From the sequence record OP172791: 64,000 nucleotides of DNA; one strand, 5' to 3'. The translations under genes and the position numbers were made by a program. Below the pieces are notes generated by a model, which searched no databases, had not been told where the DNA came from, and saw only the letters and a list, made by a program, of their open reading frames with translations. This DNA comes from Escherichia phage ECO340P1. Below are positions 2,971 through 46,052 of this stretch, one piece after another; positions within the stretch are counted from its first letter, which is position 1, and every line of letters begins with the position of its first letter.

Positions 2971-3173
2971 CCTTTATTTTTCCACGGTGTCAGCTTGTTA
3001 ATCATTGGTGATAAATAGCGTTTACCAACGTAAAACAGTACGCCAACTGATGCAACGGCGGCGACCTCATGCATAGCCGACGGGAAACGGGTATCATAAT
3101 AAGATCCAATAATAGCAATAGCGGCAACGGCTGCAACGTCGATAATGATTTTCTCTTGTTTTGCGGTGATCAT
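2967..3173 (-). CDS. small membrane protein (68 aa)
   Basis: ORF with hydrophobic stretch; cassette upstream. Confidence 0.5.
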   Translation of the reverse strand: MITAKQEKIIIDVAAVAAIAIIGSYYDTRFPSAMHEVAAVASVGVLFYVGKRYLSPMINKLTPWKNKG

Positions 3174-3195
3174 AGTATTTACCTTTTTGTATGGT

Positions 3196-3252
3196 GGGGA
3201 ACTATTCCCCGCCTGATGTAATACAGTTTAACAGGTCCGGTTATGGTGTCAA
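3196..3252 (-). promoter_or_regulatory. promoter-hairpin cassette for 2967-3173
   Basis: TTGACA 3247-3252, N16, TAAACT 3225-3230, hairpin GGGGAA-CTA-TTCCCC. Confidence 0.6.
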
Positions 3253-6688: not shown

Positions 6689-7051
6689 TTATTCGTAAAT
6701 TTTACCGCTTTCGGCCCATACCATAACGCGGCGCATACTATCCCAAGTGTTTTGATCCAGGTTTAATCCGTGCAATTCTTCGGTACTTCCCAGACCAGGT
6801 ACCGCCTTGTTGTAAGTTGCATATAAGCGCCCTTGATACTCATACGCCAGGGTGAGATCCGTTTGAATCATCTTTTTAAGCATAGCATTAAGCATCATAT
6901 TAGCGGCATGTTGATCACGTTTTAGCGGTAACATATCAATAAGGGCGCGATAAGCTGAAACATGAATATCAACCGTTTCACGTGGTAAATTTTTCATCTC
7001 ATCGCGGAAAGATACCAGATTAAACATGATAGTATTGATTTGCTTGCTCAT
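6689..7051 (-). CDS. hypothetical protein (120 aa)
   Basis: Track ORF trimmed to ATG with SD AAAGGG after hairpin. Confidence 0.6.
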   Translation of the reverse strand: MSKQINTIMFNLVSFRDEMKNLPRETVDIHVSAYRALIDMLPLKRDQHAANMMLNAMLKKMIQTDLTLAYEYQGRLYATYNKAVPGLGSTEELHGLNLDQNTWDSMRRVMVWAESGKIYE

Positions 7052-7074
7052 TGTGTTACCCTTTTTTTGTTTTG

Positions 7075-7134
7075 GCGGGGAAGTATTCCGCCGCCCTATG
7101 TGATACATCTTATCAGATTAAAAAACGTTGTCAA
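7075..7134 (-). promoter_or_regulatory. promoter-hairpin cassette for 6689-7051
   Basis: TTGACA 7129-7134, N16, TAAGAT 7107-7112, GC inverted repeat 7075-7096. Confidence 0.6.
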
Positions 7135-8214: not shown

Positions 8215-8487
8215 TTAAAGCAAAAACGCTACATCTTGCGCTTTTAGTGTAGTATCAACCATTTTTGGGCTTTTATAATCAACAAAGCGCGCGGTTTTTT
8301 CAATAGCAAAACCGAGATAATCTTGTTTATTGAATTTACATTCTTTCTTAAATGTTTCCCGCGCCACGGTGATCGCTGCGTCCAGGGATAAACGCCCGTC
8401 AATGTTGATATTTGCGAAAGATCCGCCACCGCTCATAGGTTTACCAGTGGTGCCAGCTACGATCATTGTTGCGCTATATGATGCCAT
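8215..8487 (-). CDS. hypothetical protein (90 aa)
   Basis: Track ORF trimmed to ATG after hairpin and SD AGAGAG. Confidence 0.55.
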   Translation of the reverse strand: MASYSATMIVAGTTGKPMSGGGSFANINIDGRLSLDAAITVARETFKKECKFNKQDYLGFAIEKTARFVDYKSPKMVDTTLKAQDVAFLL

Positions 8488-8509
8488 GATGATAATCTCT
8501 CTGTTGTGA

Positions 8510-8570
8510 GCGGCTGGACCATTCCGCCGCCCTATGTGGTACATCTTATCAGGTTGTTGTTTGTTGTCAA
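8510..8570 (-). promoter_or_regulatory. promoter-hairpin cassette for 8215-8487
   Basis: TTGACA 8565-8570, N16, TAAGAT 8543-8548, GC inverted repeat 8510-8530. Confidence 0.6.
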
Positions 8571-8576
8571 TACTTT

Positions 8577-8774
8577 TTATTCTATTCCTGCAATTTGATT
8601 AACGCGCTTGCATTTTGTAGCGTGCTGGTCTTCTGTAATGACTCCCATTTCTAACAGGGAATCAATGAAAGATAAAACCGTTTCATGATCATCCTGGGGA
8701 TGACTGAACTCAGTAAAACCGTTTACTATTACGTTGATTTGTCCAGCTTTCGCCACAATATGCAATGTTGCCAT
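8577..8774 (-). CDS. hypothetical protein (65 aa; start uncertain, may extend to 8903)
   Basis: ATG 8774 with SD GGAG; long GC-rich leader upstream. Confidence 0.45.
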   Translation of the reverse strand: MATLHIVAKAGQINVIVNGFTEFSHPQDDHETVLSFIDSLLEMGVITEDQHATKCKRVNQIAGIE

Positions 8775-8908
8775 GATCTTAACTCCAGGTGATAAATGAT
8801 GTTTTTTGTTGGTGGACGGTGGATTATGGAGATCCTCACCTTTGCCCGTCCTGCATTGCGCCCTCCTGTTGTTTATTGTCGTTGTGCCGCGCCCCCTCGA
8901 CAAGATGA

Positions 8909-8937
8909 ATACTACGCTACCAGGTGAGGAACGTCAA
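8909..8937 (-). promoter_or_regulatory. sigma70-type promoter for 8577-8774 with long GC-rich leader
   Basis: TTGACG 8932-8937, N17, TAGTAT 8909-8914; ~130 nt leader holds a 6-codon uORF at 8836-8856. Confidence 0.5.
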
Positions 8938-8954
8938 CCACTTTTTCAATCTTT

Positions 8955-8981
8955 TTTATTTTCTTTTTGCTTGCTATATAT
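8955..8981 (+). promoter_or_regulatory. extended -10 promoter for 9047-9313
   Basis: TGcTATATA at 8972-8980; GC hairpin GCGCC-N6-GGCGC 9008-9025 in leader. Confidence 0.35.
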
Positions 8982-9046
8982 AAAGGAAAGGGCTATCATC
9001 TTTCTACCGCGCCAACCAGGGCGCACAACAAAGAAAGGGCGACACC

Positions 9047-9313
9047 ATGACAAATACTACATTACACCTTATGCACTCATTGGGCTGGCAAGGCGGCACG
9101 GTGCACCAGGTAGCAAGCGCAACGGGCTTAAAGGTTGAAACAGTTCTCAACCTGGGCGATCATAAGGTGGAAGAGATAGATCATTTTGATACGTTCGCAA
9201 ATGGTTATCTATGGGCTTGCAGTGGCGGCGGGGAAAGCAAGATACCACCAGGGGCGCGGGGCGATATGTATTTTTGGTTAGGTGTCCTATCCTGGCAAGA
9301 AAACAAAAAATAA
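9047..9313 (+). CDS. hypothetical protein (88 aa)
   Basis: ORF with SD AAAGGG; extended -10 promoter and GC hairpin upstream. Confidence 0.5.
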   Translation: MTNTTLHLMHSLGWQGGTVHQVASATGLKVETVLNLGDHKVEEIDHFDTFANGYLWACSGGGESKIPPGARGDMYFWLGVLSWQENKK

Positions 9314-9314
9314 T

Positions 9315-9343
9315 CTTGACAAGCCCAGGGATCGGGCTTATAC
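9315..9343 (+). promoter_or_regulatory. strong sigma70-type promoter reading into non-coding region
   Basis: TTGACA 9315-9320, N17, TATACT 9338-9343; spacer is itself a dyad AGCCC..GGGCT. Confidence 0.6.
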
Positions 9344-9559
9344 TGTTTTACATACAGAAGAGGAAGCGCCACCCCACGGCGTAAAGGCGGGGCTAACATA
9401 CCAGGGGGCACTGGTTGGAAGGTTGATCGCCGGTAGGCTGGGCGCTATATATTTGTAAAGAAATGTAAAGATAAAATAATCGCTTGCTTTCCTGGCTGGA
9501 TCTGTTATTCTTATTACATGGCGAGGGGACACGGGAGCGCGAGACAAACACCGCCCCTG

Positions 9560-9945
9560 CGCGTCATTCTCTAAATGAGAATGATTATCATTTACCTTAT
9601 CAAATAAGAATCAATCTCATTTATAAACCTAAATGCGAATCATTATCATTTGCATTTCCATATGAGAACTCTTCTCATTCTCATCTGCATAAATTTTTGT
9701 AAACTTTAAATTTTGCTTTTGTACTTTCATTTTTGTAAAAGCAAAAAAACTTTAAATACTGTGGGCGCGCAAAATTTTTAAAATTTTCCTTGACTTTTGA
9801 GTTTTGTTTTGTATCTGACATTTTAAGATAATTTTCCTAAACTTTAAATTTTGGTTTTCAACTTTCACTTTTGTAAATTCTTAAAAAGTTTAAATAATTT
9901 GAGGGATTTTTGAGATAATAGGTAATGGGAATTTGAGATAACCTT
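9560..9945. repeat. AT-rich non-coding region with direct repeats (candidate replication origin)
   Basis: ~42 bp direct repeat at 9698-9741 and 9837-9880; ATGAGAATGATTATCATTT-like repeats at 9575-9685; TTTGAGATAA twice at 9909-9941. Confidence 0.45.
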
Positions 9946-10038
9946 TAATCTTATTGGCAGACCTTCAGGAACCCACTCAGATCGAATCCTAGTGATGCAA
10001 ACTGAAAAAGATAAGTGTTTGTATAAGACAAAATAACA

Positions 10039-10070
10039 GGCTCTCTACGGTGCTGTAGGAGCCTTATTTC
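10039..10070. terminator. bidirectional rho-independent terminator
   Basis: GGCTC..GAGCC stem with T-runs on both strands; ends leftward operon after NADAR gene. Confidence 0.55.
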
Positions 10071-10119
10071 TGTGCTACAAAGTGACACCTTTGTTCTAAA
10101 AATGAAAAAAGTTAAAATA

Positions 10120-10662
10120 TCACAAATATCGTCTTTGCGGTATTTTGTCTGGGAAAAGTATTTCGATCAGTTTGTTATGATATTTGCCTAAAAGATTCTG
10201 CCCTTTCCAGGTGGCAGGGTTTAGCACCCCTGGTTCATACATCCCCATTCCAATTCCGTAAACCTTATCGTAGGGGCTTGCTTCAACAAACGTTTTGTAT
10301 TGGTAAAGGTGTAAGTCTGCATACAAATCTGGATTCTGTACATATTTCAAGCATAAACCTCGCATAACAATACGCTCACGGTTCTCTTCCCATACGTTGT
10401 TATCAAAATCCGACACTGCCCTACCCATACGTTTGTAATAAGCTTGTTTCCTCTCGTTGTCACGTATAGTCGAGTGATCAAGGATAGCTGCTGCAATCGC
10501 ATGATCCTTGAACAGCAAAGCCTTACGCCACATCATATATTGCTCAACACAACAGAAAGTCTCATTGTAACCTGGTTCGGTTTCTGTAAAGGGTGCAATA
10601 TACCAATTACTAAAAACATCTTTATGTGAAAAGAAGAATACATAATCATCCGTTATTCGCAT
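10120..10662 (-). CDS. NADAR (DUF1768, YbiA-like) domain protein
   Basis: Motifs FSNW, CVEQYMMWRKALLF, MGR, SPYDKVYGIGMG, WKGQNLLG align with NADAR family pattern. Confidence 0.8.
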   Translation of the reverse strand: MRITDDYVFFFSHKDVFSNWYIAPFTETEPGYNETFCCVEQYMMWRKALLFKDHAIAAAILDHSTIRDNERKQAYYKRMGRAVSDFDNNVWEENRERIVMRGLCLKYVQNPDLYADLHLYQYKTFVEASPYDKVYGIGMGMYEPGVLNPATWKGQNLLGKYHNKLIEILFPDKIPQRRYL

Positions 10663-10850: not shown

Positions 10851-11216
10851 TTAATCCATCCACCAGTAGCCATAAACTGCGTCTGCGTCGATGAGTTTGT
10901 GTTTGTTGTTCCGCATGTAGTCTAAGATAAGTAGACGTTTATTGTATCTGGAGAGATTATGACCCTCTTTTCCGCCATAGTCAAAATATTTTGCAAGATC
11001 TTTGCACTCAAACAAAATTAGTTCAGGAGTTTCTTCACACTGGTCTGTCTGGTACACTTGACGAATGATCATGTATACATCGTCGTCTTCCGCTAAATGC
11101 TCTACTGGTCCACATCCAGCAGGAACAAATTCATAGTCCCATCGAATCAGATGTTTCTCTACTGCTTCAAAGAAATCCATCCTTTCGTTGCGCATAATTT
11201 GAACGTCAACTAACAT
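10851..11216 (-). CDS. hypothetical protein (121 aa)
   Basis: ORF with SD ACAGGAGAAAA. Confidence 0.55.
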   Translation of the reverse strand: MLVDVQIMRNERMDFFEAVEKHLIRWDYEFVPAGCGPVEHLAEDDDVYMIIRQVYQTDQCEETPELILFECKDLAKYFDYGGKEGHNLSRYNKRLLILDYMRNNKHKLIDADAVYGYWWMD

Positions 11217-12412
11217 GTTTTCTCCTGTAATGTTCCACCATAAAGTTTATAAATGTTTTGTATTGAGGCCATGCAAGATAACTCTACTGTTTCTGTGTAG
11301 CCATCTGGCATAGCATATTTGCTCACTGCTTCCGTGTGAAGGACACGCTTACAACGCTTCTCTGCATCTTTGCATTGCTTCACAGTAGGGAAGTGCCACA
11401 CTTGGACCTGTTTCATAGTAAACACATTACGACTATTTTGTTTTTTGATACGGCGATCACTATTATTGGCAATTCCAAATTTCAAAGCACAGAGAATACC
11501 TTGTTCATCATGAATGTGGTTAATGTAACATTGTTGTTGTGTCTGGTTAGCACATTGCGGACAACCAGTGCCATGATTTAACAAACCACTGGCACGTCCT
11601 ATTTGTACCCCATGTTTCTTACATCCATATTTAAACTTACCTAATCTTACAGACGGTTTCCCGATCCAACCTACCCAGATATACCCTTTCCTTTCTACTG
11701 CCTTTTTTACCCTATAGGTAATCTGTGCTTCTGTGTAATGACAATTAGTTGCACAACGGCAAGGAATCTTCCCTTGTTTAAGGTCATTCCCTGCGACATA
11801 AAACTTACCATCACACACCCCAGCTTGCACATACTCATCGTGAGAGCAGGCAGGACACTCTACACACCATAAAGAATCGCGGCCTCGTTTTTTATCTGTT
11901 TTAGTGAAGATTGTACCCTCTTTAAACTTTCCTGTATTAATGAAGTCTTGTATGTGCTGATCGTCTGGAAGTATTTTAGAATTCCTAGATCTTTTGTTAC
12001 CGCATTTAGGACAACCACTACCACCCTTAAGATTATGAAATGTTAATGTTCGCCATTCCCCGTGCTCAGGACAAAGGTTGATCATCTTTGTATGTACACC
12101 TATAAACTCTCCATTAATGCCTAAAATCTTGATTCCCTTAGCTTCAGCAATAGGTTTACATTCCGAAAGGTAATAATCTAGGTTTTTACTGTTGTCTTGT
12201 CTTGCTTTCTCATTTTTGCACCTAGGGCAACCAGACTTACCACGTTTAAAATTGGCAAATGTGGATGTTCTCCACTCCCCATGATTAGGGCAGAAGTTGA
12301 TCATCTTCGTGTGCACACCTTTAAATGGCTCTACAATCCCTATAATCTCATATCCTTTAGCTTCCGCTATTGGTTTACATTCTCCTATATACTGTTCTAA
12401 CGTCTTCGCCAT
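11210..12412 (-). CDS. Cys-rich protein with duplicated Zn-ribbon modules, possible homing-endonuclease-like
   Basis: Two repeats ECKPIAEAKG...CPxHGEWRT...GCPxC; C-terminal KFGIANNSDRR resembles T5orf172/GIY-YIG-like motif. Confidence 0.5.
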   Translation of the reverse strand: MAKTLEQYIGECKPIAEAKGYEIIGIVEPFKGVHTKMINFCPNHGEWRTSTFANFKRGKSGCPRCKNEKARQDNSKNLDYYLSECKPIAEAKGIKILGINGEFIGVHTKMINLCPEHGEWRTLTFHNLKGGSGCPKCGNKRSRNSKILPDDQHIQDFINTGKFKEGTIFTKTDKKRGRDSLWCVECPACSHDEYVQAGVCDGKFYVAGNDLKQGKIPCRCATNCHYTEAQITYRVKKAVERKGYIWVGWIGKPSVRLGKFKYGCKKHGVQIGRASGLLNHGTGCPQCANQTQQQCYINHIHDEQGILCALKFGIANNSDRRIKKQNSRNVFTMKQVQVWHFPTVKQCKDAEKRCKRVLHTEAVSKYAMPDGYTETVELSCMASIQNIYKLYGGTLQEKTC

Positions 12413-12492: not shown

Positions 12493-13632
12493 TCAGAACA
12501 CGCTACCCAGTGTAGTGGAACGTTGTGTTACAGGCTCCAGCACCACTCGCAGAGTGTTTCCTGGTGTAGTGCTCATCACCAGAATCTTACCACCTTCAAT
12601 CAGATCACAAGTTAGACCATCAGCAGTTGCACACAGATCAATATGTGGATCGCCATCTTCATCCAGGATAACATAACTGTTGGTTTCCATTGCTTCCACT
12701 TCATCATCTTTCAAACTTTGTAGATAGATGTTCAGGGAACAAGCACCCGACAAAAACTTAGTAGGGGTGAAGTCGTGCCAGTTATTGATCCAATTCACCT
12801 TCAAGGTTTTGCCATTAGCTACGATAGAAGCCACATTCCATTTAGCATCGTTCCCTAAAGAAATACCCATCATTTCAAGACATTCTTTAAAAGTCATTTT
12901 TGGATAGAAATTCAATTCTTCTACAATGCCTTGAATAACATCGAAAGACAACTCTGTGCTAACATCCCATAAACGTTGGAAGTTATCTACGTGCTTTTTA
13001 TTTACCAAGTTCTTATCCAAGTAATCTAACATAGTTTCACTAGATAGTTTATCGTAATTGAAACTGTAGTAGATACGACTAGGACGGTTTACAAAATATT
13101 CCGAGATATAGCCACTATTTTTAGTGAGGATGTAAAGTTTATTCCCACTTCCTGTTCCATCCAACAAGGTCAACAGTGCTTCCTGATCTTCTTTCTTAGC
13201 GTACACTTTATCAAATTCGTCAAATAAAACAACAGCACGATCTGTAATTTTACTCATAAATTCTAAGAAGCCAGCATCTGTGTAAGGCTGTGTAACCAAA
13301 ATGGTTGGAATACCTAAACCTTCTGTGGACATTAGAGACATGCTAATCAGTTTAGCTAACATCGTCTTACCACTGCCCTTTGTCCCTGTCAGTAACACCC
13401 CAGTATTTTTACCTTCTTTACTACGACGAGCAAATGTTTTAATAACATGTGCGGCGCGGTCTTTAGTTTCCCCATAAAGAGTGTTCGGAAGAGAGAAACT
13501 TTCGCCACGCACTAAAGAGTAGTTACCGTGCGGATCGCAGTTGACAACCCAAACTCCAGCAGGAAGTTTATTAGCTTCAACACCATATTCCTTATTTACA
13601 ACAGCCACATCTCCAAAAATAGTGTATTTCAT
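12493..13632 (-). CDS. AAA+ ATPase
   Basis: Walker A GTKGSGKT and Walker B VVLFDEFD; unknown C-terminal domain. Confidence 0.65.
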   Translation of the reverse strand: MKYTIFGDVAVVNKEYGVEANKLPAGVWVVNCDPHGNYSLVRGESFSLPNTLYGETKDRAAHVIKTFARRSKEGKNTGVLLTGTKGSGKTMLAKLISMSLMSTEGLGIPTILVTQPYTDAGFLEFMSKITDRAVVLFDEFDKVYAKKEDQEALLTLLDGTGSGNKLYILTKNSGYISEYFVNRPSRIYYSFNYDKLSSETMLDYLDKNLVNKKHVDNFQRLWDVSTELSFDVIQGIVEELNFYPKMTFKECLEMMGISLGNDAKWNVASIVANGKTLKVNWINNWHDFTPTKFLSGACSLNIYLQSLKDDEVEAMETNSYVILDEDGDPHIDLCATADGLTCDLIEGGKILVMSTTPGNTLRVVLEPVTQRSTTLGSVF

Positions 13633-45558: not shown

Positions 45559-45587
45559 TTGACAACTTTGCGGAAGGGACTTATACT
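45559..45587 (+). promoter_or_regulatory. strong sigma70-type promoter for 45621 / MTase / DNA polymerase
   Basis: TTGACA 45559-45564, N17, TATACT 45582-45587; same hexamers as promoter at 9315. Confidence 0.6.
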
Positions 45588-45620: not shown

Positions 45621-46052
45621 ATGCGTATGACAATCGATCTGAATGCAAAAGTTAAAGCTGCTGGTGCTCTGGGTGCTGGTGTTATTAAACACAAACAAGC
45701 GTTGGCATTTGCCATCCCACATATGATTGTTGAGGATCATCCTGAAGAGTTTGCTGTAAAAGTTGTTGAGAACAATGTCTCTGTTATTGAACATCTTCCA
45801 ACTGGACGTTCTTACCGTGTTGTTTCTTCTAAAGGTTTCCGTTTCGATGTAAGCCCTTCTTTCACAAAAGGTGCTGGTCGTAGTAAAGTGGGTATTCTTT
45901 CTTACAAATATTATATCGATAAAGTTGCAGATGGTGTTGCATTCTGTCGTGTAAGTGAAGGTAAAGTAGATATCATCTTTAAAAATACTAAAAACATGGT
46001 TATTTCTGATGATGGTAAAGTTGACCTCACTATTGAGTTCGCTAACAACTAA
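45621..46052 (+). CDS. hypothetical protein (143 aa)
   Basis: ORF with SD AAGAGGAGAAG directly after strong promoter. Confidence 0.55.
   Translation: MRMTIDLNAKVKAAGALGAGVIKHKQALAFAIPHMIVEDHPEEFAVKVVENNVSVIEHLPTGRSYRVVSSKGFRFDVSPSFTKGAGRSKVGILSYKYYIDKVADGVAFCRVSEGKVDIIFKNTKNMVISDDGKVDLTIEFANN

Follow-up and report, generated by a model that had tools for sequence, protein, structure and literature searches.

The genome of Escherichia phage ECO340P1 (sequence record OP172791) carries, at positions 9315-10070 of the 64,000-nucleotide stretch analysed here (hereafter the window), a strong promoter pointing into about 700 bp with no credible open reading frame (ORF), and the question arises as to what such an interval is for. 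A reading of the sequence alone had offered two answers, a transcription-activated replication origin or a regulatory RNA. The region is 97-99% identical to phAPEC8, ESCO13, ZCKP1 and ~60 other Phapecoctavirus records (Stephanstirmvirinae), and the source is, on sequence identity, a phAPEC8-like myovirus (Phapecoctavirus). Our comparisons indicate that the interval is the core of a non-coding island of ~1.1 kb, syntenic across rV5-like phages, and that it is, as far as sequence and comparison go, a composite of two promoter-driven structured RNAs (RNA1 and RNA2) and putative operators for Fur and CpxR. The explanation that we favour, and to which we would give about even chances, is that of a conserved control island in which two small-RNA genes are read by the host RNA polymerase and wired to Fur and CpxR. 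Its parts are as follows.

9316-9344, plus strand: P1, near-perfect sigma-70 promoter TTGACA-17-TATACT, with an A-rich tract upstream
9351-9446, plus strand: RNA1, a ~95-nt GC-rich structured RNA (predicted fold, covariation)
9367-9370/9378-9381, plus strand: stem of RNA1 (fold model)
9372-9375/9389-9392, plus strand: candidate pseudoknot of RNA1 (fold model)
9397-9417, plus strand: variable hairpin of RNA1 (fold model)
9419-9436, plus strand: invariant tail of RNA1, AAGGTTGATCGCCGGTAG (conservation)
9455-9469, plus strand: exact CpxR-type box GTAAA-N5-GTAAA, its centre ~56 nt upstream of the P2 start
9484-9511, plus strand: P2, TTGCTT-16-TATTCT, with a weak -35 and TGn directly before the -10 (extended -10), ~70 nt beyond RNA1
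9517-9595, plus strand: RNA2, a long hairpin RNA (predicted fold, conservation)
9519-9524/9562-9567, plus strand: closing stem of RNA2, AUGGCG/CGUCAU (fold model)
9541-9552, plus strand: invariant apical GAGACAAACACC of RNA2 (conservation)
9563-9585, plus strand: alternative 3' hairpin of RNA2 with a U-rich run after it (free energy -10.8, z -4.4), graded weak
9574-9592, 9603-9621, 9632-9650 and 9661-9679, no strand: four Fur-box palindromes, ATGAGAATGATTATCATTT-like, 19 bp each, in a 29-bp phase
9692-9763 and 9830-9901, no strand: AT-rich (23% GC) direct repeats of 72 nt each, 82% identical, lineage-specific
9909-9918 and 9932-9941, plus strand: two TTTGAGATAA motifs, exactly two copies, 13 nt between them, equal to copies 2 and 3 of T5 "direct repeat A"
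10039-10072, both strands: bidirectional intrinsic terminator, closing the island against the minus-strand gene 10120-10662

The two predicted RNAs and their promoters

The genes on both sides of the island lie on the minus strand, the right neighbour being a NADAR-domain gene (10120-10662), so that the interval belongs to a plus-strand island (~8940-10070) that opposes local transcription. A sensitive search with this island matched 353 phage records. Close relatives retain it entirely and Justusliebigvirus only 9300-9593, at >90% identity, while the distant groups (Vequintavirus, Certrevirus, Mydovirus, Seunavirus, Henunavirus, and Serratia and Pectobacterium phages) retain only query positions 448-722, that is window 9347-9621, a stretch that opens at the P1 start and reaches the first palindromes. 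In Stephanstirmvirinae and five Vequintavirinae genera the locus is a syntenic gap of ~1 kb, devoid of genes and flanked by minus-strand ones, and the order of the parts within the gap is kept: P1, a GC-rich block, TTTTGTAAAGnnnTGTAAAGA, P2, a second GC-rich block, one to six palindromes, lineage-specific direct repeats, and TTGAGATAA motifs. The genome paper of rV5 draws the gap as a "non-coding" box, with no comment. A conserved segment that begins at the P1 start lends weight to the regulatory-RNA option of the sequence-only reading, as do the compensatory changes in RNA1 and the preserved closing stem of RNA2 described below; this island-wide conservation, like P2, the CpxR-type box and the palindromic nature of the Fur-like repeats, was absent from that reading.

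P1 matches 11 of 12 consensus positions and is the best plus-strand site between 6.5 and 11 kb, as the description of a strong promoter had implied. Two copies of its exact combination of hexamers and spacer are present in the 64 kb (0.02 expected), the second at 45559-45587, so that the recurrence pointed out earlier is real; this second TTGACA-17-TATACT promoter lies after a terminator-like hairpin and before a gene starting at 45622. The spacer of P1 (9321-9339) is a GC-rich palindrome that is also scored as a terminator-like hairpin for the upstream gene of 88 amino acids (aa), and early promoters of related phages have spacers of the same GC-rich palindromic type. Downstream of P1 the base composition alternates sharply: against 39.6% GC in the whole window, 9351-9446 has 62.5%, 9517-9570 has 66.7% and 9571-9905 falls to 23-28%. 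The GC-rich start and AT-rich remainder seen in the sequence-only reading thus hold, with a second GC-rich block that it had not set apart.

The single-sequence fold of RNA1 has a minimum free energy (MFE) z score of -2.55. When metagenomes were scanned with the invariant 18-mer and the hits pooled with the phage loci, >30 distinct variants were obtained, and a model was built on 22 distinct ones, consisting of a stem, a pseudoknot between its loop and downstream sequence, a three-pair helix, and the variable hairpin. In these 22 sequences 88.9% of the cells are paired vs 81.9% in shuffles, and the covariation reaches 0.179 vs 0.083, a value attained in 0 of 500 shuffles, with slid controls at 0.02-0.07. 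Eight pairs are changed on both sides, and changes of this type are found at six of the seven pairs of the variable hairpin (6/7); in the most divergent members this hairpin is a short stem with a GAAA, UUCG, GCAA or GGGA cap. The pairing of loop with downstream sequence takes the forms CCCC/GGGG, CCAA/TTGG, CCAG/CTGG and CCAT/ATGG, and on this model the pseudoknot is likely to be real. The conserved tail is also cited as AAGGUGGAUCGCCGGUAG. A very divergent, AT-rich homologue of RNA1 lies on a 1349-nt metagenomic contig (L154, 90-260, reverse strand), where fold and invariant tail are kept with the stem AGAC/GUCU, the loop pairing CCAU/AUGG and the cap GCAA; RNA2 and Fur boxes are absent downstream.

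P2 keeps its position in all rV5-like lineages examined. Upstream of its -35 element stands the direct repeat GTAAA-N5-GTAAA (9455-9469), the arrangement by which CpxR boxes are recognized; the exact box is present in a single copy in the window and is kept upstream of P2 in most lineages, Serratia and Erwinia phages preserving only the first half-site. A control scan of 14 kb of E. coli K-12 with the same pattern returned one copy, in the cpxR|cpxP intergenic region. As for AAAAASTTTAAATA, considered as a general phage promoter motif, no enrichment was found outside the island.

RNA2 has an MFE z score of -3.55, an invariant apical loop GAGACAAWCACC, and a 5' end that pairs with the sequence directly before the first palindrome. 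Its closing stem is kept by differing letters: AUGGCG/CGUCAU in the window, AUAGCGGG/CCCGCUAU in CR8, AAUAAC/GUUAUU in FFH2 and GACGC/GCGUC in L120. Vequintavirus has two tandem copies of the module formed by promoter, RNA2 and Fur box (in FFH2 at L005 2434 and 2568), and Certrevirus-like contigs carry a module of promoter, RNA2-like hairpin and Fur box at a second locus (L032 ~3040-3200, reverse strand; L027 4740-4900), inside an early gene cluster and co-oriented with the flanking genes. Duplication and a second locus fit RNA2 as a self-contained small gene. A pattern scan of viral contigs returned few loci. Some relatives carry a gene inserted within RNA2, with an annotated HNH endonuclease under the match in Raoultella phage Ro1 and Klebsiella phage K23PH08C2, and at L141 1290-1500 RNA2 is likewise split by an inserted ORF.

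Neither RNA resembles a catalogued family. No match was found in the whole window at the gathering thresholds of Rfam 15, the four matches admitted up to E = 10 are at chance level with none on RNA1 or RNA2, and ARAGORN found no tRNA or tmRNA. Compensatory pairs across homologues, the general mark of a structured non-coding RNA, are present in both RNA1 and RNA2; we regard this covariation as supportive and not as proof because the alignments are small and their members related. The proposal that RNA1 and RNA2 are two previously undescribed, conserved structured RNAs with host-type promoters is thus supported by sequence comparison.

The palindrome array, the AT-rich repeats and phage T5

RNA2 leads directly into the palindromes. 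The sequence-only reading had seen in this DNA repeated ATGAGAATGATTATCATTT-like elements and taken them for iterons; the repeats are present, and they prove to be four 19-bp palindromes of the Fur-operator type, 29 bp apart, which speaks against their interpretation as iterons. They are the only matches to their pattern in the 64 kb (0.28 expected; 0 of 100 shuffles reach 4), and the 29-bp phasing is repeated in at least seven rV5-like lineages. The classical Fur box GATAATGATAATCATTATC, or 7-1-7 inverted repeat, is matched at 16 of 19 positions at 9577-9595, the best score in the 64 kb, with overlapping consensus matches around 9577 offset by 6 bp; sites with at least 14 of 19 matches number 16 in the window, and 5 of the 16 lie within 9571-9653. 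A Fur matrix built from 42 phage sites alone also recognizes bona fide Fur-regulated operators: on 28 kb of E. coli K-12 its top six sites fall in fepB|entC, fepD|entS and fepA|fes, together ~2.6% of that sequence, and on a second K-12 stretch (14 kb) its top two, 6 bp apart, lie upstream of sodA. By sequence, then, the palindromes are Fur boxes and hence putative Fur operators. A shared phage-encoded protein was considered as the palindrome binder and gained no support, no homologue of the T5 pre-early proteins being found in the window or in rV5-like early blocks, which makes a conserved host protein the simplest candidate binder.

Beyond the array, the direct repeat of ~42 bp noticed earlier proves to be real and longer, and each of the 72-nt units holds the sub-motif AAAAA(C/G)TTTAAATA. 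The supposedly tandem TTTGAGATAA does occur in two exact copies, at 9909 and 9932, with 13 nt between them, hence not strictly in tandem.

The same combination is found in phage T5. T5-like phages share ~71% identity over 112 nt with window 9579-9690, across the array, and T5 9473-9630 holds the same palindromes, annotated there as direct repeat C and palindromes E-I, between a DnaA-box inverted repeat and the 7.9% nick/shear point of first-step transfer. The TTGAGATAA motif corresponds to copies 2 and 3 of T5 direct repeat A (T5 10026-10064), so that two components of T5 Repeat Region 3, the palindrome/direct repeat C array and direct repeat A, are present in the island. In those parts of the T5 literature that were accessible to us, the palindrome and repeat elements are called of unknown function, with no mention of Fur.

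The position relative to the genome ends was obtained from three relatives whose ends are mapped. Their terminal repeats measure 329 bp in Schickermooser (verified as identity of record suffix and prefix), 342 bp in BME3 and 514 bp in KPP-1, and the island lies 13.7 kb (9.1%), 11.6 kb (array at 8.0%) and ~8.8 kb (6.2%) from the respective genome end, with only small early-type genes, transcribed endward, in between. In each of the three, Fur boxes also occur in the terminal repeats or in non-coding DNA next to them; in T5 one is found at 231. These sites are:

Schickermooser record 75, 254 and 150186-151119 (L033/L034): Fur boxes near the ends
BME3 53, 248, 1159 and 1217 (L036): Fur boxes near the end
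KPP-1 116713-117441 (L035): Fur boxes near the end
T5 231 (L038): Fur box near the end

By sequence, Fur boxes therefore bracket the terminal early block in both T5-like and rV5-like groups. The window itself ends ~4 kb short of the expected genome end.

Genomic surroundings

The only coding part of the plus-strand island precedes P1, and its features are these:

8971-8999, plus strand: weak sigma-70-like promoter TTGCTA-17-TATCAT, serving the small plus-strand gene and pointing away from the minus-strand early promoter 8937-8909
9047-9313, plus strand: 88-aa gene, phrog_19316 of unknown function

The product of this gene is helix-turn-helix-like in appearance; Pfam gave no DNA-binding domain for it, and only phrog_19316 matched. 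At the other end, the bidirectional terminator proposed earlier is borne out by a hairpin (10039-10063) with a T-rich run after it on each strand (-15.3 and -18.6 kcal/mol, z -2.4 and -4.3).

To the left of the island, from 8903 downwards, runs a long series of small minus-strand genes, each preceded by a sigma-70-type promoter. In the first of them (8577-8774, minus strand) the promoter 8937-8909 is followed by a ~130-nt GC-rich leader (8800-8902), which resembles the GC-rich starts of RNA1 and RNA2. The small early genes carry a conserved promoter-plus-leader (the "PHIRE" promoters of the phAPEC8 annotation) before their true start codons, and two ORFs (6689-7108 and 8215-8544, minus strand) share the identical artificial N-terminal peptide MYHIGRRN. 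The genes near the island are the NADAR gene, two unknowns, a CapR-domain endonuclease and an AAA ATPase without assigned role. The CapR protein (11210-12412, minus strand) has 400 aa with three CapR-homology repeats and DUF723 and falls in a phrog named "endonuclease", and the AAA ATPase (12493-13632, minus strand) has 379 aa with faint similarity to clamp-loader and DnaC-like proteins; the place of both genes beside the island is kept in Stephanstirmvirinae.

Possible functions of the island and comparison with known systems

In the control island as we picture it, P1 would start RNA1, and P2, with its CpxR-type box at about -56, would start RNA2, both RNAs being made early by the host polymerase and acting in trans, whether to regulate host or phage targets or to serve as decoys for them. 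Envelope stress would, through CpxR, lead to more RNA2, and iron-loaded Fur bound to the phased array would set the 3' ends together with the weak hairpin at 9563-9585. Fur would there stand as a roadblock and curb read-through into the AT-rich DNA, so that transcript length would follow iron status. The Fur array, the repeats and TTGAGATAA together probably form a cis-acting DNA element of their own, which T5 shares, be it an origin, a boundary or a DNA-entry signal.

Several points weigh against this explanation. The RNAalifold consensus energies are weak (-11.6 kcal/mol for RNA1 and -2.65 for RNA2), a result of high sequence conservation and of RNA2 stems that MAFFT aligns wrongly. A canonical GC-rich, U-tailed terminator is missing from both RNAs, and RNA1 may simply continue into RNA2; the transcription starts, the 3' ends and the separateness of the two RNAs are all inferred. 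The RNA1 pseudoknot is not proven because the proposed pairing is broken in the homologue L137 and its register differs by one base from one sequence type to another. Fur sites that begin ~55 nt downstream of a transcription start would make an unusual geometry for a repressor, and the Fur roadblock is a conjecture. Finally, T5-like phages carry the Fur array without RNA1 or RNA2, and the array must for that reason also have a role independent of these RNAs.

Of the alternatives to be weighed, a transcription-activated replication origin is credible, although we consider it less likely than not: G-rich, R-loop-prone transcripts from P1 and P2 would invade the AT-rich repeats and prime the leading strand for a T7-like replisome, the repeats binding a phage initiator. 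Structured RNAs would be compatible with it, as in ColE1 RNA II, and two promoters do fire into DNA of 23-28% GC with direct repeats, as expected where a promoter faces an AT-rich unwinding region; in RNA1 G outnumbers C (skew +0.2), the repeats vary by lineage where the RNA region is conserved, as if the sites co-evolved with their initiator, and in Vequintavirinae the repeat units come in threes with A6T6 tracts and GATC clusters. The T5 counterpart has paired DnaA boxes, the AAA ATPase with its faint clamp-loader/DnaC likeness is 2.5 kb away, and the genes of rV5-like phages include those for a family A polymerase and for a gp4-type helicase-primase (rV5 paper). However, the island contains no DnaA box or IHF site and no adjacent initiator gene is identifiable; the long repeats are two, 138 bp apart, and not phased short iterons, the iteron-like elements are Fur-operator palindromes, and the RNA2 module occurs elsewhere without AT-rich repeats. 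The cumulative GC skew has its minimum at ~16 kb, at the strand switch, and tracks the coding strand, a confounding that the rV5 authors also met, and T5 origins lie near the genome centre (Davison review, bioRxiv 10.1101/866236), which we counted against an origin here. The origin nevertheless stays a live rival for the 9690-10035 part. A paper on ICP1 replication was also considered and gave a method only, no homologue.

That the Fur array, the repeats and TTGAGATAA form a T5-type boundary element, marking the inner edge of the first-entering segment and pausing or organising entry, or being looped by Fur to the terminal-repeat boxes, appears improbable to us. It would account for the same palindromes at the T5 7.9% shear/nick point and for TTGAGATAA as direct repeat A, for the ~71% identity with a T5-like phage across the array, for the similar relative position of the island in relatives (6.2-9.1%) with the intervening genes transcribed endward, and for the extra Fur boxes in or beside the terminal repeats of three relatives and at T5 231. 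Yet the stop-signal element of Davison, the DnaA-box inverted repeats, is absent from the island, as are the T5 D repeats (no DnaA box corresponding to IRD'-spacer-IRC' in 8900-10150, and no GTGCAAATCCGAC repeats); there are no A1 or A2 homologues, the terminal repeat has 329 bp and not 10 kb, a cytoplasmic protein on DNA already inside is no obvious brake on entry, and two-step entry is unreported for this group in the literature found. We would give slightly less credit still to a Fur decoy, in which clustered boxes, multiplied by replication, titrate away the Fur of the host, so that iron uptake and related genes are derepressed to the advantage of the phage. Multicopy Fur boxes derepress the Fur regulon (the principle of the Fur titration assay, FURTA), and the 4-7 strong boxes at the island plus those of the terminal repeats are conserved in phages of E. 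coli, Klebsiella, Salmonella, Cronobacter, Serratia, Pectobacterium and Erwinia and in T5-like phages; but a decoy needs neither a 29-bp phase nor a fixed place beside RNA2 and at early-block edges, and the sites per genome are few against the cellular Fur pool until late replication. Hardly credible, lastly, is a protein-coding region (phAPEC8_00257 or small ORFs) or a packaging/terminal-repeat site. phAPEC8 does annotate a 342-nt minus-strand gene across RNA1 and RNA2, the sole gene ever annotated in this interval; this frame is recorded as frameshifted in phage Schickermooser and is also split in the window, indels between lineages are not in frame and disrupt every reading frame in the RNA2 region, and the longest ORF within 9345-10070 has 72 aa and a TTG start, in agreement with the earlier statement that none is credible. 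Coding was rejected on these frameshifts and non-triplet indels. The region is repeat-rich, as pac sites often are, but the terminal repeats lie 8-14 kb away (that of Schickermooser, 329 bp, at 13.7 kb, the BME3 end at 11.6 kb) and the island is hence not a packaging site, so that this reading was rejected as well.

Should the control island hold, two conserved structured RNAs would become known from rV5, phAPEC8, phi92, PVP-SE1 and Mydovirus relatives, a large group of candidates for therapy whose regulation is barely understood, and the presence in virulent phages of putative operators for Fur (iron) and CpxR (envelope stress) suggests an early programme that reads host physiology. The Fur-box sequence of the T5 first-step-transfer palindromes also provides a concrete candidate protein for a question open since the 1980s. 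One bolder idea, which we think has a small chance of being right, is that host Fur is the missing host factor of a genome-organising element common to T5-like siphoviruses and rV5/phAPEC8-like myoviruses: the terminal-repeat clusters and the array 6-9% in would bracket the first-entering early block, and bound Fur would define the injection stop, or first-step-transfer boundary. If this were true, Fur could pause the entry of DNA, close a loop or gate the firing of an origin; delivery or activation of rV5-like genomes would proceed in two stages, with RNA1 and RNA2 as the effectors of the first.

The kinds of parts assembled here are known (small-RNA genes, host-regulator operators, the T5 repeat region), whereas the two RNA families, a phased Fur array in virulent phages and the identity with the T5 palindromes are absent from the sources searched. 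Transcription-activated origins are represented by the T7 primary origin with phi1.1A/B, by T4 oriF/oriG and by ColE1 RNA II. The island resembles them in its tandem promoters followed by an AT-rich region, its structured G-rich transcript and the T7-like replisome, and departs from them in having no skew signal, a module duplicated without AT-rich DNA, and host-regulator operators in between. With CpxR-activated promoters such as cpxP, P2 has in common the exact GTAAA-N5-GTAAA box upstream of a weak -35; it differs in being phage-borne and in driving a non-coding RNA, its dependence on CpxR being predicted by sequence. Like the phage sites, the E. coli fepA-fes, fepD-entS, fepB-entC and sodA operators show a 9-1-9 / 7-1-7 palindrome with overlaps offset by 6 bp, whereas the phage sites are discrete, follow a 29-bp phase and lie downstream of the promoter and not over its -35/-10, and at position 6 of the half-site G is commoner than T (63% vs 35%), unlike in the E. 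coli operators. Strong Fur sites (22.3 and 17.1 bits) have been described upstream of the cryptic-prophage genes nohA, a homologue of the terminase small subunit, and ynaE/ydfK (Chen et al. 2007, PMC2189734), and Fur boxes near phage DNA-handling genes may be more general.

A further comparison is with T5 Repeat Region 3, a non-coding region that holds the injection stop signal (Heusterspreute 1987; Wang 2005; Davison, bioRxiv 10.1101/866236). T5 has DnaA-box inverted repeats and GTGCAAATCCGACA repeats, both missing from the island, and its region lies inside a long terminal repeat together with the A1 and A2 genes, which the island also lacks; T5, in turn, is without P1, RNA1, P2 and RNA2, and its boxes are spaced by 35 bp vs 29 bp in the island. 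Both nevertheless present a palindrome array, then direct repeats, then two TTGAGATAA motifs, and, to judge by the relatives with mapped ends, the island would resemble the T5 region in lying where a terminal early-gene block has its inner limit, ~8% into the genome.

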